Shown: one piece after another, positions 36,208 through 53,487 of the stretch
Layout: every line of letters starts with the position of its first letter
Numbering within the stretch: the first letter of the stretch is position 1
DNA from: Candidatus Poribacteria bacterium
GTDB taxonomy: Bacteria > Poribacteria > WGA-4E > JAJDTR01
Assembly: GCA_965222225.1 (NCBI GenBank)
Contig: CBDCTK010000002.1
Location: 2,656,001 to 2,720,000, forward strand
Reading direction: 5' to 3'
DNA: 64,000 nt
Made by a program: the position numbers and the translations under genes
The notes under the pieces: generated by a model
Told to the model about the DNA's origin: nothing
The model's input: only the letters and a program-made list of their open reading frames with translations
Database searches by the model: none

Positions 36208-36622
36208 GATCAAGCGACTGAATAAGGAGTGCGATAGTAAATCCCTCAAGCGACTGATTAGGGAGCGATCAAAGGAATGAATAATGACTGCGATAGAGTT
36301 CCCATGGTAAATCCCTCAAGCGACCAATCAACTGAACGAATAGCGAATGCGATAGCAACTCTTACAAGTCGGGAATCGGAACGGATCTCTATCGCCCTGA
36401 GAGATCTATCGCATTCGCTCATTTGATTTATGCGGTCGGTTGATCGGTTTCTTCGTTGGATCTTCGTGGATTCTGTAGGAGCGATCTCCGAATCGCGAAC
36501 ATCACCGAATTGCGCCGAATTGGGAATCGGAACGAATCTCTATCGCAGTCGCTGTCCGCTCCCTTGATCCCTCACTATCCGATCGGTTGATCGTTATCCA
36601 CTCGATTGATCTCATTTGATCG
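36208..36622. repeat. Dense cluster of the 30-nt tandem-GA hairpin repeat (representative locus)
   Basis: GATCAA-NN-GA-NN-GRATA-NN-GA-NN-GCGATAG, full, truncated and nested. Other loci near 5560-5630, 11010-11095, 12925-12980, 15173, 25912-25960, 27433-27495, 31375-31440, 38050-38180, 46223, 46384, 46812, 48126-48190, 49822-51935, 52840-52980, 53390-53680, 57305-57380, 61238, 62270-62360. Confidence 0.92.
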
Positions 36623-36805
36623 TTCAACCCAACCTACATGGCTGCCCTTTCGCTTGACGGGGAGATCCACCGCTCATAGAATAGACGTCATCCTTCCCGA
36701 GCTAACCCAATGCTTAGAAAGGAGAGCGGAAGATACCTCAACGACGAGCAGACGATAAGCAGACTTAACGACAATGGCTAGTTCTGAATGAGGGGGGCAC
36801 ACCAA

Positions 36806-37777: not shown

Positions 37778-38225
37778 AGTGCGTATATATTGCACTCTGG
37801 GATGGTATAATAGCGGGAGATTGAGTCAAGAAACGAGTTTTTTGGAAGACCTCGGTTTCTTCGGTATTCGCTTGTCTGTTTCTCGGTAAAATTGTATCGG
37901 TGGAGAGTTGGATTTCGGATATATGAAGCAAAACGAGAACCTCGAATGCAATCCGAATTCTAGGCTTTATTCGTAATTTTCAGTTCAACCCAACCTACGG
38001 CATGATGCAGTTTTTCTTATTATTTCACTTCACACGGATAGCGATCAGGATTTACTATGGGAGTTCTATCAAGACTTTCTATCGGGATTTACTATCGCAC
38101 TCATTAGCCATTCGCTTGATCCCTCATTATCCACTCGGTTGAGGGATTTGCTATCGCGCTCCCTATCCGGTCGCTTGATCGCGGATGAAAAGCAGGCAAT
38201 TTGATTTTCGATCGAGGATAAAATA

Positions 38226-39164
38226 ATGACACAACTTCAAAACTTTCGACTGGCGCGCTACCGACTGACGCTGACGGCGTTGTCAACGATTACGATGCCG
38301 CCTTACGCCGGCTCGACGCTGCGGGGCGGGTTCGGTCATGCCTTCCGAAAGATGGTGTGCACTCAGGGACCAATCGACTGCCGGGACTGCACGCTCAACG
38401 CGGTCTGCCCCTATCCGTACATCTTCGAGACGGCGCCGTTTGAGGGGGCGCAGCAGTTGCGAACCTACGGCGATGTGCCGAGACCGTTTGTCATTGATCC
38501 GTTGGATACGCGGGGCGAATACCGCAGAGGCGAATCGTTCTCGTTTCAACTCACGCTCATCGGGCGCGCTATCGATTATCTCCCCTATTTTTTGGTTAGC
38601 TTCCGCGAACTGGGGGAAATGGGGATTGGCAAGGGACGCGGGCGATTCCAGTTGGCGCATGTCCGCACGGATGACGGGGAATCAATCTACGACGGCGATA
38701 CGCAGATGGTGCACAATCTCGATAACGCTCGGAGTTTCGACGATATCCAACGGGAAACGGAATCACAAAAGACGGACGAGTTGACGCTGCGGCTGCTCAC
38801 GCCGACACGCATCACGCACGAAGGGGCGCTGACGGATCAACTGCCGTTTCACGTGTTCTGGCGTAGGCTCATCGGACGGATCTCGGCGTTGGCGTATTTC
38901 CACTGCGGCGAATCGTTGGAGATGGATTTCAAGGGGCTAATCGAAAAGGCGACGAGTGTCGAGATGACGGATTCGACGCTGCGCTGGAAGGATTGGACGC
39001 GGTATTCGTCTCGGCAGGACCGGAAGATGCAGCTCGGGGGGTTGGTGGGGCACGCCACGTATGCCGGGGATTTGGAGGCGTTCGTTCCGTTCGCGGCGTT
39101 GGGCGCGTATCTGCATGTGGGGAAGAATGCGACGTTTGGGTTGGGGAAGTATAGGGTGGAGTGA
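38226..39164 (+). CDS. cas6: CRISPR pre-crRNA endoribonuclease Cas6
   Basis: GSTLRGGFG, CxxC..C, PRPFV, WTRYSSRQ, G-rich loop HVGKNATFGLGKY. Confidence 0.95.
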   Translation: MTQLQNFRLARYRLTLTALSTITMPPYAGSTLRGGFGHAFRKMVCTQGPIDCRDCTLNAVCPYPYIFETAPFEGAQQLRTYGDVPRPFVIDPLDTRGEYRRGESFSFQLTLIGRAIDYLPYFLVSFRELGEMGIGKGRGRFQLAHVRTDDGESIYDGDTQMVHNLDNARSFDDIQRETESQKTDELTLRLLTPTRITHEGALTDQLPFHVFWRRLIGRISALAYFHCGESLEMDFKGLIEKATSVEMTDSTLRWKDWTRYSSRQDRKMQLGGLVGHATYAGDLEAFVPFAALGAYLHVGKNATFGLGKYRVE

Positions 39165-39173
39165 GGTTTTGTA

Positions 39174-41615
39174 ATGTCTAATTTTGAGAGAGACGAACAG
39201 TATTGGGATAGCCACTTTAAGAACATGTTTGGCGAAGTATTTGTTCCCTTTGAGTTTCAACGCAAGGTAGCAGAACATCTTCTAAGCGGACGAAATGTGA
39301 TTTTACAAGCCCCAACAGGAGCTGGCAAAACGAAAGCCGCTTTGTTTCCGTACTTGTTGGCTCAACAGGAAAATATACAATTTCCTCGAAAGTTGATTTA
39401 CACTACTCCTATGCGAGTCTTGGCAAAGAACTTTCACACCGATTTCAAAGAATCACCAATAGGGCAACAGACGTGCCTCAAAGCGGAAATCCAGACGGGT
39501 GAAAATCAAGATGACCGTCAATTTCGTAGCGACCTGATTTTCACGACTATCGATCAGGTGTTGAGTAGTTTTCTTAACATCCCGTACGCGCTGGGGTTGC
39601 GTCAAGGTAACGTCAACGCTGGCGCAGTCGTCGGCGCGTATTTAGTTTTTGATGAATTTCACTTATTCGATCCTGATACCTCGTTGGGAACTGTGATTGA
39701 AATCCTGAAGATGCTCAACGGTATCACGCCGTTTTTACTAATGACTGCCACTTTTTCAGAGGTGCTTCTTGAGCGTTTGAGCGAATACTTTAACGCGGAA
39801 ATCGTGCCAGTGACAGAGGCTGAACTTAAACAAATCCCTTCTCAGCAAGGAAAACGCCGTGAGTATCGGGTTAGCGGGGGAACACTTTCGGAGAACGTAG
39901 ACACGATTATTGCGCAACATCAACAACGCAGTATCATTATCTGCAATACGGTGAAACGGGCTCAGAATATGTTTCAATCACTGCAGAGCAGTTCGCAGCG
40001 AGGTACTGATACGGAAGTATTACTTTTACACTCCCGTTTTCTGAAGGAACACCGAAAAGCCAAAGAGGACATGATACGCTGTCGTTTCAAACGAGACGCG
40101 GGACTCGACGATGTAATTTTGGTTGCGACGCAAGTGATTGAAGTTGGGCTAGACATTAGCTGTGAGAATCTGCACACAGAACTGGCTCCCGCAAGCGCAA
40201 TTTTACAGCGCGCGGGGCGGTGCGCGCGGTTTGAAAACGAATCTGGAACAGTGACAATCTATCCTATTCCACCTACGACCAACGGTTCACCAAATTATGC
40301 CCCTTATGATAAAGAAACTTGTGAAGCCACGATGGCGGCATTTCAACACCGAAACGGAGGTGTGCTAGGCTTTGTAGCAGAGCAAGAGGTTGTCAACGAA
40401 GTCCACCGCGAAAGCGATGAAAAAATTTTGGCAGGTATTGAGACACGCCCAATACGCAGTCGTATATCAGAAGCGATTTCTGGACAGGAACTAGGTCTTG
40501 CCCGTGAATTGATTCGCAAGGATGACTCGCGTATGTTGCTCGTACATGATGAACCCGAAACACTTGATAAGCCGTTTCGCGTTGAAGGTTTCAGCCTATA
40601 TCGCGGCACACTGTTTGGAGTGTGGGATGAGCTTCAACAGGCGGCGCAAGAAAAGGAGCTGGGTTGGTCTCTGAAGTATCCTAAGGAAATGGAAGACAAC
40701 TCGCCAAACAGTCGTACTACCATTGCCTATGAGTGGCATGAGGCAAAAGAAAAGAAAGACTTAGGTATTTCTCCACTGTTTGTAGTGCATCCAAAACTGG
40801 TTAAATACAATACCGAGATAGGTTTCTGTCTTGAAGCAGGGACGACACCTTGTCCACTAAGCGTACCTGACGATGAAACCACGCAAGAAGCTGACTGGGG
40901 CAAAGGCTACTATCGCGAGACATACACCGAACATATCCAACACCTGTTGAATGCATATCAATCTGGTCTAGCGACTGAACTAGATTACGCCGCCGCGCGG
41001 CTTGAACAGAAGTTGGAGGCATCTGAAGGCGCCGTCGATCGGGCAGTAAGGCTCTGCATTGCCCTCCATGATGTCGGGAAACTGACGGTTGGTTGGCAAG
41101 AATGGGCGCACAAATGGCAAAAAGAAATTGGTGAACCTGTCGATGAAAATTACATGGCGGCGCATACCGATTATGACCGTAGCAATCTTGCCATACGCGA
41201 AATAGAAAAGCAATTCCGCGTCAAAGTCAAACGGCCAGGACATGCTGTTGAAAGTGTTTGGGCGGTTGCACCACTGCTAGCAAGAGTCTTAGGCAAAGAA
41301 CAGAAAAATTTGGCGGAAGCCTGTTTCACTGCTATTGGACGACACCATGCACCGCGCGCAAAGGACTGTTCACCCTACACCCTGCACCCTTATGCGCCAT
41401 CTGAGATCGAAACGGTTCTAAAGAAGATAGGAAGTTTAGGGCAGGAGACTCAACGACACTTCGAATCCATCTGTAAGCACAAGGAACCTACAAAGCCTTT
41501 TTCCCATTTTGTCCAGCCGTCTAACACGCTTGCACTACTAACCTATTTCCTGATTGTGCGCGCTCTACGGCTTGCTGACCAAGAAGCAACCTCAAAAGTT
41601 AGCAGAAGGGAGTAA
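39174..41615 (+). CDS. cas3: Cas3 helicase with C-terminal HD nuclease
   Basis: APTGAGKT, DEFH, TAT, HSRF, TQVIEVGLDIS, QRAGRCAR; C-terminal EH, HDVGK, H, HH, LADQ. Confidence 0.94.
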   Translation: MSNFERDEQYWDSHFKNMFGEVFVPFEFQRKVAEHLLSGRNVILQAPTGAGKTKAALFPYLLAQQENIQFPRKLIYTTPMRVLAKNFHTDFKESPIGQQTCLKAEIQTGENQDDRQFRSDLIFTTIDQVLSSFLNIPYALGLRQGNVNAGAVVGAYLVFDEFHLFDPDTSLGTVIEILKMLNGITPFLLMTATFSEVLLERLSEYFNAEIVPVTEAELKQIPSQQGKRREYRVSGGTLSENVDTIIAQHQQRSIIICNTVKRAQNMFQSLQSSSQRGTDTEVLLLHSRFLKEHRKAKEDMIRCRFKRDAGLDDVILVATQVIEVGLDISCENLHTELAPASAILQRAGRCARFENESGTVTIYPIPPTTNGSPNYAPYDKETCEATMAAFQHRNGGVLGFVAEQEVVNEVHRESDEKILAGIETRPIRSRISEAISGQELGLARELIRKDDSRMLLVHDEPETLDKPFRVEGFSLYRGTLFGVWDELQQAAQEKELGWSLKYPKEMEDNSPNSRTTIAYEWHEAKEKKDLGISPLFVVHPKLVKYNTEIGFCLEAGTTPCPLSVPDDETTQEADWGKGYYRETYTEHIQHLLNAYQSGLATELDYAAARLEQKLEASEGAVDRAVRLCIALHDVGKLTVGWQEWAHKWQKEIGEPVDENYMAAHTDYDRSNLAIREIEKQFRVKVKRPGHAVESVWAVAPLLARVLGKEQKNLAEACFTAIGRHHAPRAKDCSPYTLHPYAPSEIETVLKKIGSLGQETQRHFESICKHKEPTKPFSHFVQPSNTLALLTYFLIVRALRLADQEATSKVSRRE

Positions 41616-41621
41616 AAACCG

Positions 41622-43415
41622 ATGTACCAACAGACTTATTTCGTTGATAAGCCGACAGGCACATTTGCCGATGTTTGTTCAGCTTTCGGATTGGCAACTG
41701 TCCTAGACGAATTCTTACGACGTGCTCTCGGTGAACACAGTTTTCGCACTGTCAAAATAATGGATCAGGGGACGACGTACGCGATTGAACTCACCCCCAT
41801 AATGCAAGAAGAATGGGTCGAAAGTCCAAATTTCTTTTCCCCTATTCCCTTCATCAAGACAGGGAAAAATAGTGCAACGATGCCAGAGGAAATTTACAAG
41901 ATTGAATACGACGAAGAGAAACAGATTTACGATGAATATAGAGAAGCCCGTCGAATTCTGGGGCAAACGATTCATCGCGGCGGAAGCGAGAGCCAAGGCG
42001 ATGCCGCTTTACCGGACAAACCAAAACCCAACTATCCGGTTTGGCAGAAAATCAACATGATGTCGGGGATCAGTTCTTACAATGCTGCTGTGGGCAACTG
42101 GTTTGAAGCTCGTGGGGAATTCGCAGAGCTTCTCCATCTTCTTCTTGCACTTCACGCCACCACGCCTAATCCGGTTTCAGCCTGTGAGCAAGAATGGAAA
42201 AAACTCAAAAAGGCGGGGAATCTTTCTGGAAAAGACCGCTTGAATATGCTGCAAATATTCAACCCGAGTACCGGAAAAGGCCAAAACGCCACAAAAGCAA
42301 ACAGCTTGTCGATGGGTAACGTAAGCAACTTTTGGTTGTGCGAATACATAAAGATGGTCGGTTTCTACCGTTGCGCGTTACCACGATTCGTGTCAGTGAA
42401 ACCTGGCCAGCCACCGACGGACCGAAAAACCTTCGCATTAGCGCCTATCAACATGACACTTGCGGCGCACAACGACATTTTCAATAGCTTCCGTGACACA
42501 GTGAGAAGCAATTACGCAATAAAGTCTGACATCTTTGCGGCGCTCAACTACACACAATGCTTTCTGAAATACTCCGAAGAAGCTCAGGAATCTGATGACT
42601 TATGGGGTGACGGTCCCCATGACTTTGTCGCAGGAATGCACACCGCCTTTTATAAAGATCTCGGCAACTCGTCCGCCGTGATGAACCTTTCCTTTATCAA
42701 TCTACCACGCTGGATGAACGTTCAAGATATAGATGATGTGCAGATATACCGCGAGATGATAGCGGAACACCTGCAAATCATAGGAAGTTTAGAAGAGGAA
42801 CGGAGTGAAGGCTTTCAACTGCTCCAACACTATCGGGACTTCCTATCCGGTCACGATTTCACGGCGTTCTTTGAGTTCACAGCGAAATACCCAAACTACC
42901 TGCTTAATGCCTTAGCGAAGGAACATTTCTGGGTTAAGCCGTTGAGCGCAACTAATTTGAGGAGGTTACTCATGAGAAACGAAAAAAAACTCACGCCAAT
43001 TATCAAAAGCGAGGGTTTTCAAAATATCGCTAGAGCCATCCGCCAAAGCACCGTGACGCTACAGTATATGGCGAGAAGCGGAAACCCCCCGTATGACATT
43101 CGATATGGACTCGGACAAGAATTGCGACGCAAGGCGAACTATCCGGACGAGTTCATTCAGGAATTAGGTGATTTTCTACACTCTTTCAACGCGGAAAATG
43201 CCCGCGTAGCGGAAGTTTCATCCGAAAGGGACCGGCGGTTCCGGCGGAAAAGCGTCCGTGTAGATGACATCACCGAAATCGTTCAATTGATTGATGAACA
43301 CGGGGCCCAAACCGTCTGTCATTTGCTGCTAGCTTTCGGATACGCTTCTACCAGCCACGATGAGGCGCCGACAGACGATGCCACCTCCCACACCCAACAA
43401 GGAGAAGGAAAATGA
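41622..43415 (+). CDS. cas8: Type I Cascade large subunit (Cas8-like)
   Basis: 597 aa between cas3 and cas7, NPSTGKGQN motif; assignment mainly positional. Confidence 0.75.
   Translation: MYQQTYFVDKPTGTFADVCSAFGLATVLDEFLRRALGEHSFRTVKIMDQGTTYAIELTPIMQEEWVESPNFFSPIPFIKTGKNSATMPEEIYKIEYDEEKQIYDEYREARRILGQTIHRGGSESQGDAALPDKPKPNYPVWQKINMMSGISSYNAAVGNWFEARGEFAELLHLLLALHATTPNPVSACEQEWKKLKKAGNLSGKDRLNMLQIFNPSTGKGQNATKANSLSMGNVSNFWLCEYIKMVGFYRCALPRFVSVKPGQPPTDRKTFALAPINMTLAAHNDIFNSFRDTVRSNYAIKSDIFAALNYTQCFLKYSEEAQESDDLWGDGPHDFVAGMHTAFYKDLGNSSAVMNLSFINLPRWMNVQDIDDVQIYREMIAEHLQIIGSLEEERSEGFQLLQHYRDFLSGHDFTAFFEFTAKYPNYLLNALAKEHFWVKPLSATNLRRLLMRNEKKLTPIIKSEGFQNIARAIRQSTVTLQYMARSGNPPYDIRYGLGQELRRKANYPDEFIQELGDFLHSFNAENARVAEVSSERDRRFRRKSVRVDDITEIVQLIDEHGAQTVCHLLLAFGYASTSHDEAPTDDATSHTQQGEGK
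42972..43415 (+). CDS. cas11: Putative internally translated small subunit (Cas11-like), 147 aa
   Basis: GGAGG at 42961-42965, 6 nt before an in-frame ATG inside cas8; helical-looking C-terminal domain. Confidence 0.65.
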   Translation: MRNEKKLTPIIKSEGFQNIARAIRQSTVTLQYMARSGNPPYDIRYGLGQELRRKANYPDEFIQELGDFLHSFNAENARVAEVSSERDRRFRRKSVRVDDITEIVQLIDEHGAQTVCHLLLAFGYASTSHDEAPTDDATSHTQQGEGK

Positions 43416-44410
43416 GCGATAACAAAGCGGTTTATTCCCTCACCATCTGTGGTCAAGCCACAATTGATATGCACTCCCTCAACAACGAAGGAAGCGAGGG
43501 AAACCAGATTGCAACCCGAATGGTCAACGTCTACGATGAGGCGGGAAAACTCGCTGCCGTGAACGCAATTTCAGGCGATATGTTCAAACACATTCAAGCC
43601 GAACATCTGTTTCATCTGAGCAGAAATAGTGGACTGAAGCTATGTTCGGGGTGCCAAAGATTCAGTGCAAACCGTATCCTTGATGACGAGACTTTTGTCG
43701 ACAGCTTCGAAAAAAACACCCCCGACGAGGAGATAGTTGCAAAGATGGTGCAAATGTGTGCCATTGATGACGTTGAAGGCATTCTTGTTACAGCGAAGAA
43801 CAAATCCACGCCGCGCAAGTCGATTGTGGAGTTTGGTTGGGTCGTCGGCATACCCGAGTTGAACACGACAGATAACTACTTCCATGTCAAGTATGTGTCA
43901 GATAGTGGAGCACAAAACGCAGATGACAGCGACAGCGCTGATGGCGGTGGAGCTAATCTTGGACAGAACATCTTCCATCGTCCCGCGAATTCGGGGATTT
44001 ACGCAGTTGTCGCAGGGGTTGAGGTTTCACGGCTCGGTTTCAACGATATAAGTCAGGCTTATGCCATTGATGACCAGGAGCGAAATCAACGATACAAAAC
44101 GTTGATTGAGAGCCTACTTTGTACTTTTGTCGATCCAAACGGAGCCATGCGAAGTGCTCAGAATCCCCATCTCGTTAACTTTGAAGGGGTTGTCAGTCTA
44201 AGCACTAAGATTTTGCCCGCGCCAACAATCAGCCCGCTTAACGCCGAATATAAGGACGAAATCAGACGTGTTGCAGACGCGCTCAATCAGATTGAGACGG
44301 ACGCAATTGAACGCCACGAGTTTGACTCACTCGGCGGTTACGCTGAAGTGATGGCAAACCTTGCCAATACAACTGTACCTTTCAAAATCAGTTATAACGG
44401 AGGGAACTAA
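43412..44410 (+). CDS. cas7: Cas7 (DevR/Csa2 type)
   Basis: HSLNNEGSEGN, AISGDMFKH, CSGC, CAIDDVEG, RKSIVEFG. Confidence 0.9.
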   Translation: MSDNKAVYSLTICGQATIDMHSLNNEGSEGNQIATRMVNVYDEAGKLAAVNAISGDMFKHIQAEHLFHLSRNSGLKLCSGCQRFSANRILDDETFVDSFEKNTPDEEIVAKMVQMCAIDDVEGILVTAKNKSTPRKSIVEFGWVVGIPELNTTDNYFHVKYVSDSGAQNADDSDSADGGGANLGQNIFHRPANSGIYAVVAGVEVSRLGFNDISQAYAIDDQERNQRYKTLIESLLCTFVDPNGAMRSAQNPHLVNFEGVVSLSTKILPAPTISPLNAEYKDEIRRVADALNQIETDAIERHEFDSLGGYAEVMANLANTTVPFKISYNGGN

Positions 44411-44411
44411 A

Positions 44412-45113
44412 ATGTGGGTGTCAGCTACCTATAAGCCCGCCACGTTCTTTTCGCTCAAGCCAAGCAATGCTACATCGTCAGGCGGTAAAACGTTGTTAAC
44501 ACCAACGCCTTATGCGATAAAGATGGGGCTGTTAGATGCCGCTATACGCACATGTGGAATCAGTTACGGGGAGGAAGCATGGGAATGGATACGCGGCTTG
44601 TCATTCGCGGTACGTGTTCCCGACCGTGCGTTAGTTAACAACGTGTTCACGCGTATTCTGAAGCCTACTCGTTCTAAGGACAAGGACGGATACGATAGAA
44701 CTATCGGCTACCGCGAATATGTCCATTTCATTGGCGCCATGAAATTGGCATTTGAAATACAAAATGATTTGTTGGTTGATGCAAAGGGACAACAGTTGAA
44801 CAAACTTCTGCCTCACATCACATACTTGGGGAAACGTGGTGGATTCGTTCAATTAATTCCCCCGGTACAATCGCTTGAGACACTACCCGCTGACTTCACG
44901 CTTTTGAGTGAAAAAAGGGATACATGGCATATCCAAAGTCAGTTACAGCACTTGGACGATTGCGACGATGAGATGACTTTCGAGCAAGCCGATATTTACA
45001 GTGGGAAGAACGTTCGTGTTGGCAAGGAACGGCACACCTTTCTTGCCATGCTTCCCTATCGACTATTGAGATCGAGTCGTGGTTTTAGCGATTACGCGCG
45101 TCTGGACATCTGA
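44412..45113 (+). CDS. cas5: Cas5
   Basis: FSLKPSNATSSGGKTLLTPTPYAIKM, YREYV, YLGKRGGF; follows cas7. Confidence 0.87.
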   Translation: MWVSATYKPATFFSLKPSNATSSGGKTLLTPTPYAIKMGLLDAAIRTCGISYGEEAWEWIRGLSFAVRVPDRALVNNVFTRILKPTRSKDKDGYDRTIGYREYVHFIGAMKLAFEIQNDLLVDAKGQQLNKLLPHITYLGKRGGFVQLIPPVQSLETLPADFTLLSEKRDTWHIQSQLQHLDDCDDEMTFEQADIYSGKNVRVGKERHTFLAMLPYRLLRSSRGFSDYARLDI

Positions 45114-45122
45114 TTTTCTGTA

Positions 45123-45190
45123 TTAACGATGTGCTTCCATATACGCCCGCAAAGATATGGCGTGCTTAGGAATCACGACGTGGGAGTCTA
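45123..45190 (-). pseudogene. Second, internally deleted brnA-like remnant
   Basis: Reads VVIPKHAISLR-AYMEAHR*, i.e. the 46119-46473 protein with the stretch between its two LR dipeptides removed. Confidence 0.6.
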
Positions 45191-45211
45191 TCCGAGGCGT
45201 TGTAGGGGCAA

Positions 45212-46000
45212 TTAGTTGCTTGCTACTATCACGAGCACGAGAACAAAAGTCACAGCCATGAATCCCGCAATTACGAAACCAACCTCCCTTGGTTGTTCTG
45301 GAGGGGCGATTGCGGGCGTCGGAGGTGGTGGCGGTGGGCGGCCAAAAGTGACACCATTTTCAATTGCCTCGCCTTGCAGCATTACCATAATGGTTTCCGT
45401 AGTAGCGGGGTAGTATTGTATCCAGTGCGTTGACACCCCGGCCGGCAGGGACGTGGGATCAAAACTGTCGTAGTACAGATCGTAGGGCAGAGCTTCCTTG
45501 CGATGAAATTCAGTGATAATTGCACCGTGTTCGTAGGAACGATACGCATTAACCACCGCGGTAAGGATGTTTTCAGCCAAGGAATCTCCGTAGCTCTGAA
45601 GGGGTGTAGTGAGTCGGTCAATCTGTGCGCCTTCGCGCAAAGGTCCACCGTAGAACTTATACATCACATGGTCTAAGGGCAGGGGCTTTACGATTGAATT
45701 TGAAGCGTTAATAACCTGAATCGGGTTCAATCCTAACTCGTATGTGTCCTTGGTTTCATTCCGGCAGGAGGCGCCAATTCCAATGATGGCATTACTCGGA
45801 TTCCCAACTTGCCGGAATTCCGTGCAAATCAGTCCAAAGGTTAAGTCATGCGTCTCCAGCTTGCCAAGTTCTTGCATTCCTGTGTTCGATTCGTTTGGCA
45901 ACGTCCAAAGTTGCGATTGCCACTGTTTTACGTAGGGAGTGGAGCAGCCGATAGTTATAAGGGGAGTTACGAGTAAAATCAGTAGCGATATCCGTCCCAT
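45212..46000 (-). CDS. Hypothetical lipoprotein with Pro-rich linker and C-terminal membrane anchor
   Basis: Lipobox TIGC, PPPPPTP, hydrophobic C-terminus; AGGAG RBS. Confidence 0.72.
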   Translation of the reverse strand: MGRISLLILLVTPLITIGCSTPYVKQWQSQLWTLPNESNTGMQELGKLETHDLTFGLICTEFRQVGNPSNAIIGIGASCRNETKDTYELGLNPIQVINASNSIVKPLPLDHVMYKFYGGPLREGAQIDRLTTPLQSYGDSLAENILTAVVNAYRSYEHGAIITEFHRKEALPYDLYYDSFDPTSLPAGVSTHWIQYYPATTETIMVMLQGEAIENGVTFGRPPPPPPTPAIAPPEQPREVGFVIAGFMAVTFVLVLVIVASN

Positions 46001-46118
46001 AGAATTCTCCTGGTGTTTGGTGGGTCACTAGCAGAGTAAATGTATAGTGCGCCAATCCTTAGGTTGTGTTATGGTTTCCAATCTTCAGCATGCGCTAACG
46101 GAATGAAAGGAGCAATTC

Positions 46119-46473
46119 CTAACGCTGCGCTTCCATGTACGCCCGCAAAACGGCGTTCATGCGGGTCTGGTAACCTCGACCTTGGGATTTAAACCACGCG
46201 AGTACGTCACTATCAGGGATTTCTATCGCACTCCTTATTCAGTCGCTTGATCGCAGGGAGATGGCGTGTTTGGGTTGGGGTATCACGACTTGGGCGTCTT
46301 TCCAGAATGCTTCATCGGTGGGTTGGGCGTCGGGGTCGGATGCCGCTGCTTCATCAATCTCTGCCTCGGTCACTGTGGAATTTCTATCGCACTCGTTATC
46401 CACTCGTTTGATCTGTTTGTGTGTCGTCGGGGACGTTATCGGAACTGTTGTCAGAGTAGGTGGTAACAGACAT
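46119..46473 (-). pseudogene. BrnA-family antitoxin disrupted by two hairpin-repeat insertions
   Basis: MSVTTYSD...DDTQTD [insert 46384-46413] TEAEIDEAAASDPDAQPTDEAFWKDAQVVIPQPKHAISLR [insert 46223-46252] DSDVLAWFKSQGRGYQTRMNAVLRAYMEAQR*. Confidence 0.85.
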
Positions 46474-46475
46474 GG

Positions 46476-46757
46476 CTAATCCAGGTGATAACCGAATTCT
46501 TCGGTGAGGATGCGCTTCTCTTCTTCCGTGTCGGCCTCGACGATGTCTTTATGGAGGACATAGTAGTGCGTTGCTTCAAGGGCAACTTCAAGCGGCAACC
46601 CGAAGTTCCTAGCCGTTCCCTCAAGTGTCTCGTGTTCGGTGCGCATGGAGGCGATAAGGTGCCAAACGGTCATGTTCCTGCCCTTTATCCAGACCTGCCG
46701 CCGCCAGTTTTTGGGACGGGCTTCAAGATATTTGCAGGTTTTGCAGCGTTGGCACAT
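46476..46757 (-). CDS. DUF433-like antitoxin protein
   Basis: IKGRNMTVWHLI...ARNFGLPLEVALEATHYY; start uncertain. Confidence 0.7.
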   Translation of the reverse strand: MCQRCKTCKYLEARPKNWRRQVWIKGRNMTVWHLIASMRTEHETLEGTARNFGLPLEVALEATHYYVLHKDIVEADTEEEKRILTEEFGYHLD

Positions 46758-47002
46758 AATTTGGGAGCCTCTGAATCAATCTTTGTCACGGAAATTACCT
46801 CACTGTAGGAGCGATCAAGTAAGCGAATAGCGCACGCGATAGAGATCTTCTCCAGGTCGCGATTCCCTACTAAATTATATCCGAAATTCAAGGTTCACGC
46901 AAGGATTTAGACCGCCCCGTATGCATGTCTCTGAAAGAAACCGAGTTTTGTGGAAAAAACTCGGTTTCGTTGAACGTCCGTTACTCCTGTAGGAGGAAGA
47001 AA

Positions 47003-48112
47003 ATGAACCAACTCACTATCTCGGACTACGGTACATCTCTCGGCAAACGCTCGGAGCGCGTCAGCGTGCGGTACCGCGGGGTGGCGCGAGAGAAAGAGGA
47101 GCACGCTCTCATGGATCTGGATCAGATTGTCATCGCCTCGCGCGGGGTTAGCTTGTCGTCAGACTTGATTGAAGCCTGCACCGAGCGCGGGATCGAAATC
47201 TCGTTTCTCAGTTTCAGCGGCAAACCGTACGCCAAACTCAACAGCCCTTCGTTGACGGCGACCGTCATCTCGCGGCGCGAGCAACTCGCCGCCTATCACG
47301 ATGAGCGCGGGGTAGAGATTGCCAAGCGGTTCGCGGCGGGCAAGTTGCGGAATCAGATAAACCTGGTGCGCTATTTCGGCAAGTACCGCAAGAAAAGCGC
47401 GCCCAAGAGGTACGACGAACTGGCGGAGCGGGTTACCAAGATTGAGGGACTGATGGGAGATATTCGTGCCCTTCAAGCGCCGAAGGATGAAGGCAACGGG
47501 GTGTCGCCGATTGACGCCGCCCGCCCGACGTTGCTCAACCTTGAGGGGCGGGCGGGGGCGCTCTACTGGGAGTGCGTGCAACGGCTGCTGCCTGCGGGGC
47601 GATTCACGACACGTGAACATCAGGGCGCTGCCGATGATGTCAATTCGCTGCTCAACTACGGATACGGGATACTCTACTCGCAGGTTTGGAGCGCACTCTC
47701 GCTGGCTGGACTGGAACCTTTTGCGGGTTTTCTTCATGTCGATCGCCCCGGCAAACCGTCGCTGGTGTTGGATTTCATTGAGGAGTTCCGCCAACCGATT
47801 GTTGATCGGGTGGTGTTTGCGATGATTAACAAGAAATTCAGGGTTGAATGGGATGAGCCGGATGACGACGCCGCCAAATCCGCGCACCAGTCGGCAAAGC
47901 CGGAAGCGGATACCGACGTGCAGACGCAGCGGTATCTGAGCAAGGGCACGCGGCGTGCGCTCGCCGACCGGGTGTTGGAACGGCTTCAGGAGACGGAGCG
48001 GTTCGAGCGAAAAGACCAGAAGTTGTGCAATATCATCCAAATTCAGGCGCGTCATCTGGCGATGTTCCTGCGCGGGGAGAGGGATTATCAGTCATTTGTC
48101 TGTAGTTGGTGA
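47003..48112 (+). CDS. cas1: Cas1 integrase
   Basis: GKLRNQ, EGRAGALYW, NSLLNYGY, GFLH, SLVLDFIEEFRQPIVDR; AGGAGG RBS before ATG 47003; contains an acidic low-complexity insert (EWDEPDDDAA...). Confidence 0.96.
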   Translation: MNQLTISDYGTSLGKRSERVSVRYRGVAREKEEHALMDLDQIVIASRGVSLSSDLIEACTERGIEISFLSFSGKPYAKLNSPSLTATVISRREQLAAYHDERGVEIAKRFAAGKLRNQINLVRYFGKYRKKSAPKRYDELAERVTKIEGLMGDIRALQAPKDEGNGVSPIDAARPTLLNLEGRAGALYWECVQRLLPAGRFTTREHQGAADDVNSLLNYGYGILYSQVWSALSLAGLEPFAGFLHVDRPGKPSLVLDFIEEFRQPIVDRVVFAMINKKFRVEWDEPDDDAAKSAHQSAKPEADTDVQTQRYLSKGTRRALADRVLERLQETERFERKDQKLCNIIQIQARHLAMFLRGERDYQSFVCSW

Positions 48113-48263
48113 GGGGCGGGAAACCGATCAACCGAGTGGATAACGAGCAGGATAAACTATCGCCTTCGCTATTCGCTCAGTTGATCGATAGAGATCCTTT
48201 TTTTCTTGAAAACTCGGTTTCTGCTGACCACTAGTCACTGAGCACTGGCAACTGTGTTTTGCC

Positions 48264-48515
48264 ATGCACACGTACGTCATCTACGACATCGTCGAAGATC
48301 GAATCCGCAAGAAGATTGCGGATGTGTGCCTCGACTACGGCTTGAAGCGGTTTCAATACAGCGCTTTCTTGGGTGACATCAACACAACGCGACGCCGGGC
48401 GTTGGATGCAAAACTAACGCAGGAATTTGGGGACGCGGAGGGAAAGATTGAAGTCCTCTCCGTGTGCGCGAAAGATTTCGACCAACGCATTGTTATCGGA
48501 GACGCCGAAAGATGA
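48264..48515 (+). CDS. cas2: Cas2
   Basis: YVIYDI..DRIRKKIADVCLDYGLKRFQYSAF. Confidence 0.95.
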   Translation: MHTYVIYDIVEDRIRKKIADVCLDYGLKRFQYSAFLGDINTTRRRALDAKLTQEFGDAEGKIEVLSVCAKDFDQRIVIGDAER

Positions 48516-49084
48516 ATATACGGGTCAGCGACATCAAGCAGTACTTCTACTGTCCGCGCGTGGTCTACCACACCTACTTCACTCCGGTGCACCGTCCGAC
48601 GACGCATCCGATGGAACTCGGCGCCCTCGAACACGAGGTATTGAGCGTCTTGGAGCGCCGCCGGACGCTTGCCCGCTACGGGCTTGAGGCTGGCAGCCGG
48701 AAATTCCACGTTTCGCTTCATGCCGAGTCGCTGGGATTGACCGGCGTGCTTGACCTGCTTATCGAGACCGAAGCCGGGGCGTTTCCCGTGGAGTTCAAGA
48801 GCACGAGACAACGACTCGACCTGAACGCGAAATGCCAGTTGACAGCGTACGCGATGATGGTGGAGGAGTGCCTCGGCGTCACGGTGGCTCAAGGGTTTAT
48901 CTATCGGATTCCCACGGAGCGAATCACGCCGGTGACGATTTCGGAGGGGCTGCGTGAGAAAACGCGCGGCGCGATTCGGGATATCCGACGAATGCTGTCG
49001 GAGGAGTGGATGCCTCCGCCAACGCCACAGCGCGGGAAATGCGTCGAATGCGAATTTCGGCGATTCTGCGCGGATGTGTTGTGA
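48512..49084 (+). CDS. cas4: Cas4
   Basis: QYFYCPR, GVLD, PVEFK, QLTAY, CVECEFRRFC; ATG overlaps cas2 stop. Confidence 0.95.
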   Translation: MNIRVSDIKQYFYCPRVVYHTYFTPVHRPTTHPMELGALEHEVLSVLERRRTLARYGLEAGSRKFHVSLHAESLGLTGVLDLLIETEAGAFPVEFKSTRQRLDLNAKCQLTAYAMMVEECLGVTVAQGFIYRIPTERITPVTISEGLREKTRGAIRDIRRMLSEEWMPPPTPQRGKCVECEFRRFCADVL

Positions 49085-49499
49085 GGCAGCCAACTAAAAT
49101 CGTTGTGTTTCGCAAATCCGTTTTCTGCGGAAAATGTGGGTCGATTTGCGAAATCTTTGTAAAAGCGTGAAACGCAGGCGGGACGCGAGATGCGCCTCTC
49201 TGTTCGCGGATAGTTGTGAATCTTGCGGAATGACGAGAGGGCTTTTCGCATTAATTTCACCCCTATTTTCGATAGACTGGGTCAAGGTTCTGCGTACTCC
49301 ATACGATGTTTGGGGACAAATCGGCTATTTTCGAAAATCCGCGCGTAAACCAGTCGAATACCCATGAACACTGAATTCTCAGCGCTTGTGCCGTTTGAAA
49401 TTGACAGGGCAACGCCGATGTGTCAAAATTACACGTATGATGTACAAACGCAGGTGGTTTCTGCGTTTGGAGGAGTTTCGGCTACTGATCGCGAGGTCG
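49085..49499 (+). promoter_or_regulatory. CRISPR leader
   Basis: Non-coding stretch between cas4 and the first repeat; contains TTGACA near 49401; the degenerate repeat is at the opposite end of the array. Confidence 0.7.
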
Positions 49500-49821
49500 G
49501 TAGCAACCATTGCCGCGATGAAAAGCGGACTGAAAGTGACAAACGTTGGATAATATGTTATACTATACTAGCAACGTAGCAACCATTGCCGCGATGAAAA
49601 GCGGACTGAAAGTATCACGCATCATGGTAGGGATTTTTCTTTGTGCGTGTAGCAACCATTGCCGCGATGAAAAGCGGACTGAAAGGATACAAAGAAGAGC
49701 CAACCAAAAGAGACATCGTCCTCGTAGCAACCATTGCCCCGACGAAAAGGGGACTGAAAGGTCGAAGTGGGACGGATATATATTTGATTGGTTGAGTAGC
49801 AACCATTGCCCCGATGAAAAG

Positions 49822-50018
49822 GATCAAGCGACCGGACAGGGAGCGCGATAGCGTTCCGTCAAATGACCGATTAGGGAGCGCGATAGCAAGCATGTAAGAG
49901 TTATCTGGGCGCCAACAGCGGCACCTAGCTCACGTAGTTACCTTTGCTCGGATGAAAAGGAATGTCTTCAAGTGGGACAAGAAGATTTCTATCGCATTCG
50001 CTATTCGCTCATTTGATC
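49822..50018. mobile_element. Hairpin-bounded cassette inserted in CRISPR repeat 5 (cargo type A)
   Basis: Starts GATCAA, ends TTGATC, flanked by duplicated CCCGAYGAAAAG. Confidence 0.85.
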
Positions 50019-50104
50019 CCCGACGAAAAGCGGACTGAAAGTGCTCAACGCGGATGTGCATATCGCTATTGAGCGCAGTAGCAACCATTGCCGCGATGAA
50101 AAGC

Positions 50105-51103
50105 GATCAAGCGAACGGATAGTGAGTGCGATAGAGATTCCATAGAGTTCCTTCAAGCGACCGGATAGGGAGCGATCAAAGGAATGAATAATGACTGCGA
50201 TAGAGATTTCATAGAGTTACCTCAAATGGAGTTACCTCAAGCGACCGATTAGGCAGTAAGGCTTTCTATCGCATTCGCTAATCGCTCATTTGATCCCCGA
50301 TGAAAAGCGATCAAGCGAACGGATAGTGAGTGCGATAGTAAATCCCGTGCGATAGAGATTCCATAGAGTTCCTTCAAGCGACCGATCAAAGGAATGAATA
50401 ATGACTGCGATAGAGTTCCGTCAAATGACCGATTAGGGAGCAGGGCTTTCTATCGCCTTCGCTAATCGCTCAGTTGATCCCCGATGAAAAGGATCAAGCG
50501 ACACCGGACAGGGAGCGATCAAAGGAATGAATAATGACTGCGATAGAGTTCCCATAGAGTTTCCGCAAGCGACCGATTAGGGAGCGGGCTTTTCTATCGC
50601 CTTCGCTATTCGCTCAGTTGATCCCCGACGAAAAGGATCAAGCGAACGGACAGTGAGCGCGATAGCAAGCATGTAAGAGTAATCTGGGCGCCAACAGCGG
50701 CACCTAGCTCACGTAGTTACCTTTGCTCGGATGAAAAGGAATGTCTTCAAGTGGGACAAGAAGATTTCTATCGCCTTCCCTAATCGCTCAGTATTCGTTC
50801 GGTTGATTGCTATTCGCTTGCTTGAGGGATAATCTATCGCGCTCCTTATTCAGTCGCTTGATCCCCGATGAAAAGGATCAAGGGAGCGAATAGCGACCGC
50901 GATAGCAAGCATGTAAGAGTTATCTAGGCGCCAACAGTGGCACCTAACTCACGTAGTTACCTTTGCTCGGATGAAAAGGAATGTCTTCAAGTGGGACAAG
51001 AAGATTTCTATCGCCTTCGCTAATCGCTCAGTATTCGTTCGGTTGATCGCTATTCGCTTGCTTGAGGGATAATCTATCGCGCTCCTTATTCAGTCGCTTG
51101 ATC
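50105..51103. mobile_element. Five consecutive hairpin-bounded cassettes in CRISPR repeat 6
   Basis: 50105-50295, 50309-50479, 50492-50623 (repeat-only type B), 50636-50863 and 50876-51103 (type A, 240-nt period), each separated by CCCGAYGAAAAG(C). Confidence 0.85.
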
Positions 51104-51333
51104 CCCGATGAAAAGGGGACTGAAAGAGCGGCTAGTACCCTGCCGACCCGTAGGCTGCTTTTGTAGCAACCATTGCCCCGATGAAAAGCGGACTGAAAGG
51201 CCACTTGCAGTCAATGAGTAAGCATAGAAAGCCAGTAGCAACCATTGCCGCGATGAAAAGGGGACTGAAAGTCGTGATATGCGGCGCGGCTGGGATATTA
51301 CAAGCTGTAGCAACCATTGCCGCGATGAAAAGC

Positions 51334-51541
51334 GATCAAGCGAACGGATAGTGAGTGCGATAGTAAATCCCGTGCGATAGAGATTCCATAGAGTTCCTTC
51401 AAGCGACCGGACAGGAAGCAATCAAAGGAATGAATAATGACTGCGATAGAGATTTCATAGAGTTACCTCAAATGGAGTTCCCTCAAGCGACCGATTAGGC
51501 AGTAAGGCTTTCTATCGCATTCGCTAATCGCTCATTTGATC
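51334..51541. mobile_element. Type B cassette in CRISPR repeat 9
   Basis: Near-copy of 50105-50295; same junctions. Confidence 0.85.
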
Positions 51542-51773
51542 CCCGACGAAAAGGGGACTGAAAGGCCCAACCGTTAATCTCTTTAATCGGCTTAACGCCA
51601 GTAGCAACCATTGCCCCGACGAAAAGGGGACTGAAAGCGCGCAGCATCAACGATCTCCAGAGCGAGAAGTTGCGTAGCAACCATTGCCGCGATGAAAAGC
51701 GGACTGAAAGTCCATAAAAAGTTAGATGATTCCATACCAAAATTATAGTAGCAACCATTGCCCCGACGAAAAG

Positions 51774-51935
51774 GATCAAGGGAGCGAATAGCGACCGCGA
51801 TAGCAAGCATGTAAGAGTAATCTGGTCGCCAACAGCGGCACCTAGCTCACGTAGTTACCTTTGCTCGGATGAAAAGGAATGTCTTCAAGTGGGACAAGAA
51901 GATTTCTATCGCCTTCGCTAATCGCTCAGTTGATC
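51774..51935. mobile_element. Type A cassette in CRISPR repeat 12
   Basis: Same cargo as 49822-50018; same junctions. Confidence 0.85.
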
Positions 51936-52255
51936 CCCGACGAAAAGGGGGCTGAATGCTTCCTAATTCATCTTGCGCCATCTCAATTGAAATCTGCCCT
52001 GGATGAATCCGTCTATGAACGCAGATTAGATGCCATCTTCTTCAGTTCAATCCCCTCAAAATAGGCGAATCCCATTACGACGCCAATGAGATCGCCGCAA
52101 TTCAAAATTGAACCAAGCATGCTGCCGAAACCCCTTTGAGGTCGTAGGCAAGCGGTTCCCCATGCGCATCTGCCACAAACTGCGCCGCTGGCCCCAGCAC
52201 CTGCTGCCAACCAAAAGGAAACCGAATCCTATGTATGAATCGCGGCGGTTTTTAA

Positions 52256-52284: not shown

Positions 52285-53487
52285 AGCGCCAACTCGGCGA
52301 TGCCGGTTAGAGATAGTCGCACACCTGTCGCTTCCGGTAATGAGCCGCCGAGAGGAAAATCCAATGTGTATTGTGTGCATTGCGTTCACCCGCGCATCCT
52401 CTAAATCTGTGCTATCAAAAGCTTCCACCGTCTTTGAAGAAGTGAACGCGCCTTCCGCGCATGGCGCTGAGTGTCAAACTTGTTCGCCTTTGCGCACGCT
52501 GTGTGACGCGAAATTAGTAATAAAACCTATGAGCAAATTGTCGAATCTGTGTCTAAACCGCTTTTCCGGTTCACCTGTTTTTGCCCCTTTTCCGCGTCGA
52601 ATTTGTCGGCACATGAGCGAATCTCGGTGGCATCCGGTCGCAGCGCCTGCCACTGTTTTTGGCAATTTTCGCAGTACGGCGGTGAACGAGGTAAAAGTTA
52701 TATTCGCAGTTTATCGCAGTTTATCGCACACTCAATCACGACGCCAAAACCATGTACGAAGCCACGCTACGACACGCTACGACGCAGTTCTCGAGTCGTA
52801 ACGCATTAACTGCGATACAGATTCCTCAAACCACTCTAGGATCAAGCGACCGATCAAAGGAATGAATAATGACTGCGATAGAGTTCCCTCAAGCGAGCGA
52901 TTAGCGAGTGCGATAGAGATCTTACTGCGATAGAAAATCCCGATAGTAGTTCCTGATAGAGCTCCCATGCGATAGTAGAGCCCGGCGCGAGAGCATTCCT
53001 AATAAACCCTCCCCAAAAAATATCCACTAACCCCTGCTTTTTTCATTGACCACATTACACATGTATAATATGATGCCGACCAAACGGATATACCGATGAA
53101 TGAATACCGTACTCCCCGCATTGCCAAACTGTCCTGCTCGAACGGATTAGGTCTTCGTCTATGTGCGCACCGTGACTTGACCTTCAAAACAACGATCTTT
53201 TTCTCTTGTACCTATTTTGTACCTATTTGCCGGTAGGTGAACCCGCACTATCAATGAAAACTACTGAAGCAAACAATGTGAGCACCCTCTCGAAATCGCC
53301 GCTCCGTTCACATTCCTGTACCTCTTTCTGGTGCGGTATTTTTACAGAAAATAGGTACAACCACCGCCTAACCCACCCCAAATGGGTGCTGGATCAACTT
53401 TTTTGTACACGCATTCGATCAATCAGCTAAAATCAACCGACTGGATGGCGTGCAGGATTTTTATCGCAGTCGATGTCTGTTCCTTTA

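Follow-up and report, generated by a model that had tools for sequence, protein, structure and literature searches.

Why do four repeats of one CRISPR array break at the same nucleotide, and what are the cassettes that fill the breaks? The array lies in a stretch of 64,000 nucleotides (nt) from a Candidatus Poribacteria bacterium (assembly GCA_965222225.1, contig CBDCTK010000002.1, positions 2,656,001 to 2,720,000 of the forward strand), which is called the window below. The genome holding the window is labelled G000, and labels such as G001 to G037 stand for relative genomes. The array contains 12 copies of a 37-nt repeat, GTAGCAACCATTGCCSCGAYGAAAAGSGGACTGAAAG, which folds into a 4-base-pair (bp) stem CCSC/GSGG around the loop GAYGAAAA; its terminal repeat is degenerate. 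In repeats 5, 6, 9 and 12, which start at 49796, 50078, 51307 and 51748, respectively, ...GAYGAAAAG(S) is the last part before a break, and GATCAA comes next. These breaks hold eight cassettes, 131-227 nt in length, and all eight end with TTGAT(C), followed by CCCGAYGAAAAG. Each cassette is built of a forward hairpin unit at the left, internal units with tails, and an inverted unit at the right (8/8 cassettes). A sequence-only reading of the window had described eight cassettes at one fixed position in repeats 5, 6, 9 and 12, with five of them in repeat 6 and no spacer hit, and this was confirmed: all spacers have a normal length of 35-39 nt, and none is interrupted. The array and its cassettes are laid out as follows.

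49500..51958 (+), CRISPR array of 12 repeats; Rfam CRISPR-DR10/DR32 matches stay below the gathering score
49500, 49576, 49649, 49724, 51163, 51235, 51601 and 51674 (+), starts of the unsplit repeats
49796..50041 (+), repeat 5, split; left part 49796-49821, right part CCCCGACGAAAAGCGGACTGAAAG at 50018-50041; boundaries ambiguous by 1-2 nt (shared G or C)
49822-50017, cassette 1 (c1), M type, 196 nt, in repeat 5
49933..49959 (+), half-repeat mimic GTAGTTACCTTTGCTCGGATGAAAAGG inside the M-type cassettes (also in c5, c6 and c8), read directly from the sequence
50078..51126 (+), repeat 6, split by five tandem cassettes; resumes at 51103-51126
50104-50294, cassette 2 (c2), A type, 191 nt, in repeat 6
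50308-50478, cassette 3 (c3), A type, 171 nt, in repeat 6
50492-50622, cassette 4 (c4), A type, 131 nt, in repeat 6
50636-50862, cassette 5 (c5), M type with extra right-end units, 227 nt, in repeat 6
50876-51102, cassette 6 (c6), M type with extra right-end units, 227 nt, in repeat 6
50295, 50479, 50623, 50863 and 51103 (+), 12-13-nt cores trailing the repeat-6 cassettes
51307..51564 (+), repeat 9, split; right part 51541-51564
51333-51540, cassette 7 (c7), A type, 208 nt, in repeat 9; matches stretches of c2 and c3 at 97-99% identity
51748..51958 (+), repeat 12 (terminal), split; degenerate right part CCCCGACGAAAAGGGGGCTGAATG at 51935-51958
51774-51934, cassette 8 (c8), M type, 161 nt, in repeat 12

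The cassettes fell into two families, an A type (c2, c3, c4 and c7, which differ by indels) and an M type (c1, c5, c6 and c8). Near-identical cassettes occupied different repeats, as the sequence-only reading had noticed: positions 50295-50384 and 51320-51409 were 99% identical, positions 50126-50307 and 51372-51553 were 97% identical, and the interiors of c1 and c8 were 98% identical (110/112), with c1 carrying an extra 35-nt unit. Cassettes c5 and c6 were tandem copies of 240 nt with 90% identity, and by their appearance they look like a plain tandem duplication. Both patterns support spread by repeat-to-repeat recombination, which the same reading had proposed. The half-repeat mimic GTAGTTACCTTTGCTCGGATGAAAAGG corresponded to degenerate repeat positions 1-27 (22/27 identical) and also ended at the GAAAAG|G break.

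When the cassettes were compared with the whole G000 genome by BLAST, 530 match clusters were obtained and each cassette end was found at 100-340 places, while neither the middle of c1 and c5 nor the mimic segment gave a match outside the array. The idea that the M interior is a fossil spacer was dropped, as positions 31-64 of c6 have about 11 matches elsewhere in G000. The unsplit repeats 7 (51163-51199) and 8 (51235-51271) had mismatched stems, CCCC...GCGG and CCGC...GGGG, respectively, and were exactly repeats 5 and 9 minus their cassettes, cut at the cores. Loss of a cassette may have left them behind, or recombination between cores may have made them.

The fixed position was found to be a property of the repeat and not only of its short core. 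GAYGAAAAG occurred at 211 chromosomal sites of G000, and a unit start followed at 8 of them, every one in the array; the co-occurrence is not due to chance, and it indicates that the repeat context is targeted, not the 9-mer alone. The homologous arrays of 13 relatives were then fetched and every repeat core was classified, giving 14 arrays with that of G000. Left junctions, in which repeat positions 1-26/27 are joined to a unit, numbered 28 in 11 of the 14 arrays: eight in G000, three each in G009, G003 and G007, two each in G005, G015, G004 and G012, and one each in G001, G021 and G008. None was present in G024 (60 repeats) and G037 (39 repeats), both of one genus and both unit-free, or in G027 (28 repeats), although its genome contains units. 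At least 11 unit stem variants abutted GAAAAG(S), the joined half repeats were of at least six types (GTAGCAACCATTG, GTAGCAACCTATG, GTAGCACTCCATG, GTAGCAGTGAGTG, GTCTCAACCTATA and GTAACAACCTCTA), and two kinds of left junction, AAAAG|GATCAA and AAAAGC|GATCAA, were distinguished. In repeats of the ...CCSCGAYGAAAAGSGGACTGAAAG family, the unit is joined by its GATCAA end just past the loop, where the 3' arm of the hairpin has run for 1-2 nt. These counts support the earlier proposal of a non-autonomous element that homes to the repeat hairpin.

Most junctions were located at the trailer end (cores 43-47 of 47, 61-63 of 63, 50 of 50, 53-55 of 55 and 41 of 42), and in several genomes the last repeat simply stopped at the split position. 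The split repeats of G003 and G007 were of the current repeat type of the respective genome, and in G003 and G005 the terminal half repeat was of one and the same variant, GTAGCAACCGACGCCGC. The right junction GAT(C/T)CCCGAYGAAAAG was found in 6 of 176 genomes of the phylum, all of two unit-bearing genera; matches in two more of the eight matching genomes, G033 and G107, lay inside coding sequence and were rejected as chance. A scan of 185,579 genomes, one per prokaryote species, for the junction of GAAAAG with the unit returned 18 stretches, 12 from metagenome-assembled genomes of Candidatus Poribacteria and 6 chance matches in other taxa. HIP1 was not enriched in G000, which spoke against an initial guess of a cyanobacterial origin. 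Three matches to the junction pattern in relatives were units nested after the GC-GAAAA-GC mini-hairpin of another unit. In the metagenome scan the right-junction pattern gave no stretch, and the left-junction pattern gave eight, all chance matches outside Poribacteria. In G009 (locus L009, 4190-5340), about 1.1 kb of non-array DNA separated a repeat cut short at the hot spot from a degenerate half repeat, which was also split there.

Repeat-rich reads mis-joined within the array would also produce split repeats. Multicopy units abound in the array, it is not spanned as a whole by any contig, and many spurious joints, arising from other unit copies, appeared when short contigs were placed on it. 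However, every left and right junction that could be tested among the listed records was bridged with 0 differences by contigs from public runs X7 and X8, possibly the source sample of the assembly, at a depth of about 100-110, equal to that of the flanks. These contigs say nothing on the order or number of the tandem cassettes in repeat 6. Runs X1 and X10, from other studies, contained pieces of the M interior with 0-1 differences, and no junction record was among those listed for them. The same kind of junction in ten further, separately assembled genomes is a stronger argument against an artefact than the contigs, and we consider mis-assembly hardly credible.

The building block of the cassettes was a unit of exactly 30 nt, GATCAA-xx-GA-yy-GRATA-y'y'-GA-x'x'-GCGATAG, with 750-773 copies in G000; it usually carries an ARATCC tail, giving a total of about 35-37 nt. 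Stem covariation was strong: 1756 Watson-Crick and 201 G-T pairs were counted at 2012 positions, so that 97% were paired versus 59% with shuffled partners, and 117 stem combinations occurred. A-C was found 16 times versus 201 for G-T; since G-T is frequent but A-C rare, the unit hairpin is read on one strand. With the outer ATC/GAT helix that ViennaRNA added, the unit becomes a rod in which 2x2 loops lie between three short helices. The family is extragenic: open reading frames (ORFs) of at least 150 amino acids (aa), called mechanically, cover 78.5% of the chromosome yet hold only 57 of 747 units. Most units were singlets or direct neighbours, and 55 convergent pairs within 400 nt were present among the 747. 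The window contained 38 strict units versus a chromosome mean of about 8.5 per 64 kb (about 4.5x). A head-to-tail run at G000:C2:1578373-1578560 held at least five 38-nt units with differing, covarying stems. Each of them closed with GCGATAGTCTTGTAG, after which the next GATCAA began, so that here, too, units are stacked behind a tail of their own.

Among the 176 phylum genomes, strict units numbered 280-761 in 10/10 genomes of the genus of the window and 111-126 in 4/4 genomes of a second genus from another family, while the remaining 162 genomes held at most 13 each and a reversed-pattern control gave 0. The unit family is therefore abundant only in two Candidatus Poribacteria genera. The cassettes are not CRISPR-specific and are built from this genome-wide family. 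The sequence-only reading had held that cassettes equally common elsewhere, with no preference for the repeat, would speak against homing; one half of this was found, with about 750 units genome-wide, but the fixed junction in the CRISPR repeat recurs.

Units outside the array also favoured hairpins. In G000, the start of 69 of 750 units coincided exactly with the 3' foot of a small hairpin without mismatches, versus 21.5 expected from shifted controls, and other offsets were not enriched. The left flanks comprised 154 GTAGG-type palindromes, 81 hairpins of another unit, 60 CCCC-N-GGGG hairpins, 30 and 16 sites in two other palindrome contexts, 7 CRISPR cores and 402 mixed sequences, with a consensus of merely G-[AT]-G-[CG]. 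Ten copies of the locus of an IS200-like tnpA gene were aligned: in 3 of them a unit of about 35 nt had the stop codon on one side and a CCCCGCTGGGG hairpin on the other, in 7 it was absent, and there was no duplication. The CRISPR hairpin is thus one of several hairpin-type targets. Comparable behaviour has been described for repetitive extragenic palindrome (REP) families, some of which are inserted within small palindromes (PMC3733652, section 7), and for REP doublets forming hairpins (REPINs), whose clusters form through insertion into or next to REPINs according to the available part of PMC3116915.

Unit orientation tracked the local GC skew ([[133,282],[216,116]], p = 2e-19; p = 2.5e-14 with clusters collapsed): about 68% of forward units were in regions with a C-rich + strand, and 65% of reverse units in regions with a G-rich one. 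A strand-specific, replication-linked process would give such a bias; a link to transcription direction is also possible. The GC skew of G000:C2 was weak and changed sign many times along the chromosome, which suggests many chromosome rearrangements.

Taken together, the reading to which we give slightly better than an even chance is that the cassettes represent REP/REPIN-like elements, composite and non-autonomous, which home to hairpins and were then amplified locally within the array. Insertion would take place on single-stranded, hairpin-folded DNA at the replication fork, and one of the HUH Y1 transposases of the genome, IS200-like or a REP-associated tyrosine transposase (RAYT), would act as the catalyst, as it does for REPs and for the insertion sequences (IS) of the IS200/IS605 family. 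Family resemblance, strand bias and hairpin targets point to such a HUH mechanism. Clean new repeats would be added on the leader side and insertions would accumulate at the old trailer end, so a pile-up is expected there, as are arrays that often end with a half repeat and a unit. The right end of an inserted cassette would bring a core copy with it (TTGATC-CCC-GAYGAAAAG); because the cassette in question, that is, it would then end in the landing sequence, each insertion would re-create the target and permit tandem stacking. Further copies would arise by this stacking or by transfer to other repeats through recombination within the 9-12-nt cores.

The right junction rebuilt CCCC-GAYGAAAA-GGGG followed by ACTGAAAG in 3 of the 4 split G000 repeats, and repeat 5 had one stem mismatch. 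With the hairpin and the ACTGAAAG handle rebuilt, Cas6 should still cut before the downstream spacer, so the processing of downstream CRISPR RNA (crRNA) is probably spared, judging from the sequence. The expected 5' handle of crRNAs downstream of cassettes is ACUGAAAG, and the upstream crRNA would lose its normal 3' end.

A number of observations weigh against homing by a REP/REPIN-like element, and several concern the core. The sequence-only reading had noted that about 12 bp of the repeat hairpin and loop are duplicated with each insertion; a 12-13-nt core did follow each cassette, but these cores were not exact copies of the local repeat. One point on the core favours the reading instead, as it suggests a core borne by the cassette: the right-hand core started with CCC (positions 15-17) in 16/16 right junctions, including those of G015, where every one of the 16 intact repeats belongs to the CCGC type, and those with CCGC left halves (G000 repeats 6 and 9, G009 and G004). 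By our own tally, left and right cores agreed at the polymorphic sites Y20 and S27 in only 6 of 15 pairs, little above chance. With its constant CCC start and this poor agreement, the 12-nt copy is not a plain or clean target-site duplication. The base after the left GAAAAG matched the local repeat stem type in about 21 of 24 junctions (own tally), so the left break lies after position 27, with the G shared in the CCCC type, which fits better than a strictly element-borne left end. G012 and G021 resumed after only a 6-nt overlap (AAAAGC), one G007 cassette was followed by no resumption at all, and the origin of the duplicated core is not explained by the model.

Flanking direct repeats of at least 5 nt were found around 0/40 convergent unit pairs outside the array. 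At single units, boundary-defined direct repeats numbered 12 versus 0-6 in 12 shifted controls, and all 12 were multicopy sequences with 3-182 copies, indicating insertion into other repeats and not fresh duplication. For this reason a provisional rule, by which the 5' arm and loop are duplicated upon insertion, was dropped. The CRISPR junction also lies inside the 3' arm of the hairpin, while the other enriched class lies at the hairpin foot, and junctions of genomes that are related do not count as independent. The contigs placed on the array, which by their nature are unable to show empty repeats or circles, revealed no excised or empty form. Taken together, the left junction appears to be the invariant insertion product, the right core may travel with the cassette or stem from another repeat, and recombination among short cores seems to have reshuffled the array.

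The transposase genes weigh on both sides. In favour of the reading stands the presence of possible enzymes: five Y1_Tnp matches were found in G000. The 157-aa TnpA passed the IS200 model (65.8 bits versus a cut-off of 55) and did not pass the RAYT model. A RAYT gene with an in-frame TAG was located at G000:C2:3088808-3089350, and its C-terminal piece scored 92.6 against a cut-off of 80. Both the IS200-like gene and this RAYT remnant had units on both sides in G000, and their orthologues elsewhere mostly lacked them. The IS200-like gene (G000:C2:3080258-3080728) was considered as the mobilising enzyme and was weakened as a candidate, as the adjacent unit is a secondary insertion seen in 3 of 10 aligned copies; the gene has end hairpins of its own (CCCC-N3-GGGG) and also occurs in G018, a unit-free genome. 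RAYTs were found in 91 of the 176 phylum genomes, and a second RAYT family was restricted to the genus (8 of 25 genomes). In the genus, the RAYT of G000 and its orthologues (L072-L085) were flanked by inverted GTAGGAGCGAYCTSC REPs, and the RAYT genes examined were flanked by other REPs (GTAGGAGCGAYCTSC; GTAGGGGACGG...). Among the Y1_Tnp matches of G000 and the RAYTs of the 176 phylum genomes, no transposase was tied to the unit, and no convincing guide-and-target covariation between the left flank and the unit stems was detected.

Several REP families coexist in these genomes, including a long palindrome, GTAGGGTGCGCACTGCGCACCCTAC, and CCTTTGAAAGCCCCAGCGGGG hairpins. In a genus-restricted RAYT-like gene (L087-L089, from G001, G006 and G003), a GTAGGGGACGGCCCCCGTGCCGTCCC-type REP was located inside the open frame, at about 1400-1510 of the oriented loci, and was apparently translated through.

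Much of this evidence could also be produced by one or two ancient insertions into a trailer-end repeat, with recombination or gene conversion between half repeats (23-27 nt), unequal crossing-over and horizontal transfer spreading the cassette and no preference for the repeat involved. The near-identical cassettes in different repeats, the c5/c6 tandem duplicate, the chimeric stem types, the relation of repeats 7 and 8 to repeats 5 and 9, and the lack of linkage between left and right cores would all be expected. The terminal half repeat common to G003 and G005 points to shared ancestry, and the interruptions are concentrated at the conserved trailer end. Such a history accounts poorly for at least 11 unit variants at one nucleotide with two kinds of left junction, for at least six repeat families in two genera of different families, and for G003 and G007, where repeats of the current type are split; hairpin contexts are preferred elsewhere too, and no spacer is interrupted in the arrays shown. 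We regard it as on the unlikely side, but a serious contender.

The M cassette raised a different question, whether the cassettes are kept for what they do. Between G000 and G015, which belong to different families, the M interior was 93-95% identical (105-106/112), while the adjoining half repeats were 73-81% identical; the G007 version was more diverged. The M cassette has either moved between arrays of different families, which would favour the reading as homing elements, or been under constraint. If the cassettes were retained for array function, as modules of processing, termination or transcription or as decoy repeat-like RNAs, their units would act as RNA. The presence of G-T pairs with A-C nearly absent fits a structure of one strand, and the M interior with its half-repeat mimic is conserved across families, the ends and flanks less so. 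When repeat 12 with c8 was folded as RNA, the two end units paired and the outer CCCC/GGGG repeat stem was preserved (z = -3.46; 0/200 shuffles as good), and the right junction restores the hairpin and handle, with one mismatch in repeat 5 of G000. However, about 730 units lie outside the array in unrelated intergenic places, a scan of the cassettes for promoters and terminators gave nothing above chance, the M interior occurs in part at the roughly 11 other genome places mentioned above, and hairpins of single-stranded DNA tolerate G-T pairs as well. Retention for function therefore seems improbable to us.

The short core duplications might also be made by the adaptation proteins, if Cas1-Cas2(-Cas4) integrated off register, attacking mid-repeat about 12 nt apart and inserting hairpin-ended DNA so that the core alone is duplicated. 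The cas1, cas2 and cas4 genes are intact and adjoin the array, a staggered attack would yield a short duplication, and mid-repeat motifs are needed for accurate repeat duplication, according to the available part of PMC4872114. Against this, the inserts are 131-227 nt long versus 35-39 nt for spacers, lie trailer-side and not leader-side, and are built of genome-wide repeats that also insert far from arrays; the right core always starts with CCC and is not a copy of the local repeat, and the duplication varies between 12-13 nt, 6 nt and none. We consider this very improbable. Canonical acquisition had been set aside by the sequence-only reading, and rightly so: the cassettes differ from Cas1-Cas2 spacers in insert length, in position (repeats 5-12 of 12) and in the merely partial duplication.

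Of the known systems, REPs and REPINs are closest. The unit resembles them as a short extragenic hairpin in hundreds of copies (Di Nocera et al. 2013, PMC3733652, and Bertels and Rainey 2011, PMC3116915, in its available part), as singlets and inverted doublets folding as a long hairpin or clover, with the c8 doublet pairing within repeat 12, in clusters formed by insertion into or next to one another, in the insertion of some REP families inside small palindromes, and in the presence of IS200-like and RAYT genes in G000. It differs in having no GTAG/CGTC tag at the unit foot, as GTAG stood 8-9 nt upstream in 128 of 750 units and was absent from the upstream 14 nt in 571. The conserved ends are GATCAA and GCGATAG, unlike the REP tetranucleotide tag, the unit folds as a rod whose three helices are parted by two 2x2 internal loops, and no RAYT among those examined was flanked specifically by the unit. 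The units are therefore REP/REPIN-like in their manner of working and not proven members, as they lack the tag and a cognate RAYT was not found.

Members of the IS200/IS605 family have hairpin ends, with the end hairpins on the same strand, and insert 3' of a fixed short target without target duplication. Units and cassettes share the hairpin ends and an orientation bias with replication skew, and an element end that resembles its own target would permit tandem stacking. In one filled-versus-empty case a unit was inserted without duplication, while in the array a 12-nt core follows each cassette. Parallels to this family are also noted in PMC3116915. The cassettes differ in that their end hairpins are inverted, that the unit family as a whole has no conserved 4-5-nt target, and that none of the transposases examined could be linked to the unit. 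A classical DDE-type miniature inverted-repeat transposable element (MITE) has terminal inverted repeats and a target duplication of fixed length. The cassette ends do resemble inverted repeats, but 0/40 non-array pairs had a flanking repeat of at least 5 nt, and the overlap in the arrays is 12-13, 6 or 0 nt, with left and right copies that differ. The small dispersed repeats (SDR) of Nostoc, which Elhai et al. in 2008 reportedly described as mobile, shorter than 40 nt and nesting in each other and in other repeats, are similarly very small and nesting, but belong to another phylum and have another sequence.

A 134-nt MITE split one CRISPR array of Anabaena 7120 into CR_6 and CR_7 (Hou et al. 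2019, as given in the available part of 10.1101/2020.04.14.041012). That case shares with ours a miniature inverted-repeat element within a CRISPR array, but it is one event in one array, whereas here 28 junctions at one repeat nucleotide occur in 11 genomes with tandem stacking. The literature searched, main texts only, yielded no account of elements that repeatedly enter a CRISPR repeat at one exact nucleotide, and nothing on repeat elements of Poribacteria.

Integrons contain the IntI integrase and attI, and their tandem cassettes are bounded by attC, a hairpin-forming core that travels with the cassette. The likeness here is one of layout only, namely tandem cassettes bounded by a short conserved hairpin-forming core; here the cassettes are non-coding and the core is a piece of the CRISPR repeat. 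A bolder version, which we find distinctly doubtful, would make the cassette with its 12-nt core a mobile module in its own right that, like an integron cassette, attaches at a dedicated site, here the hairpin of the CRISPR repeat. Such a module would be excised and re-inserted by recombination within GAYGAAAAG, would move between arrays of different genera, in keeping with the 93-95% identity of the M cassette in two families, and would erode the trailer end while sparing crRNA processing. If this were true, it would be a selfish element specialised on immune memory and a possible living example of the kinship between REPINs and CRISPR on which Bertels and Rainey speculated.

CRISPR arrays are usually viewed as targets of occasional, random insertions of IS elements or MITEs. 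Here, miniature hairpin elements were found repeatedly at one repeat nucleotide in two genera of sponge symbionts, stacking within a single repeat; the finding is real and recurrent. Should the preference hold, the bacterial immune array itself would be a preferred landing site of selfish DNA, a natural test case for target choice by hairpin-recognising (HUH-type) mobile DNA and a route for array ageing and distal-end loss, and CRISPR finders and spacer-based strain typing would interpret arrays of this kind wrongly. With its 30-nt rod, tandem G-A loops, strong covariation and hundreds of copies, the unit is also a clean candidate for structural and biochemical study.

Upstream of the array, the window contains a complete type I cas operon and a leader, and a further group of units lies downstream.

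38226..49084 (+), type I cas operon from Pfam and NCBIfam scans; all frames open
38226-39164 (+), cas6 (Pfam/NCBIfam)
39174-41615 (+), cas3, helicase then HD (Pfam/NCBIfam)
41622-43415 (+), large subunit candidate, no family match
43412-44410 (+), cas7 (Pfam/NCBIfam)
44361-45113 (+), cas5 (Pfam/NCBIfam)
46925-48112 (+), cas1 (Pfam/NCBIfam)
48264-48515 (+), cas2 (Pfam/NCBIfam)
48464-49084 (+), cas4 (Pfam/NCBIfam)
49085..49499 (+), leader, 415 nt, with a promoter-like site at 49401-49429
52809..52960 (+), cluster of units and GATAG-rich tails just past the array

The assignment of the operon stops at type I; the top cas3 model was Cas3g-like, with a score under its cut-off. The promoter-like site of the leader was TTGACA-17-CAAAAT (10/12), a consensus match only. 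Units were also present in the cas5-cas1 and cas1-cas2 intergenic gaps (window positions 46223, 46384, 46813 and 48157) and upstream of cas6 (36208-38151). Between cas5 and cas1, a 262-aa open frame ran antisense to the operon (45212-46000, -) and had no Pfam or NCBIfam match.

A crude search for further arrays in G000 gave nothing but tandem repeats and repeats in coding sequence. A conserved, leader-like sequence with a length of about 130 nt was present in five copies at G000:C2:5054900-5059600 (+) and 1309600-1310500 (-). Each was followed by a single second-family CRISPR repeat, GTTGCAGYCTATGCCCCGATGAAAAGGGGACTGAAAG, and then by small ORFs, not spacers; 0/5 of these single repeats were split by a unit. 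At about 5059510 of G000, the 3' end of a repeat stood directly behind the stop codon of an ORF, ahead of a full second-family repeat.

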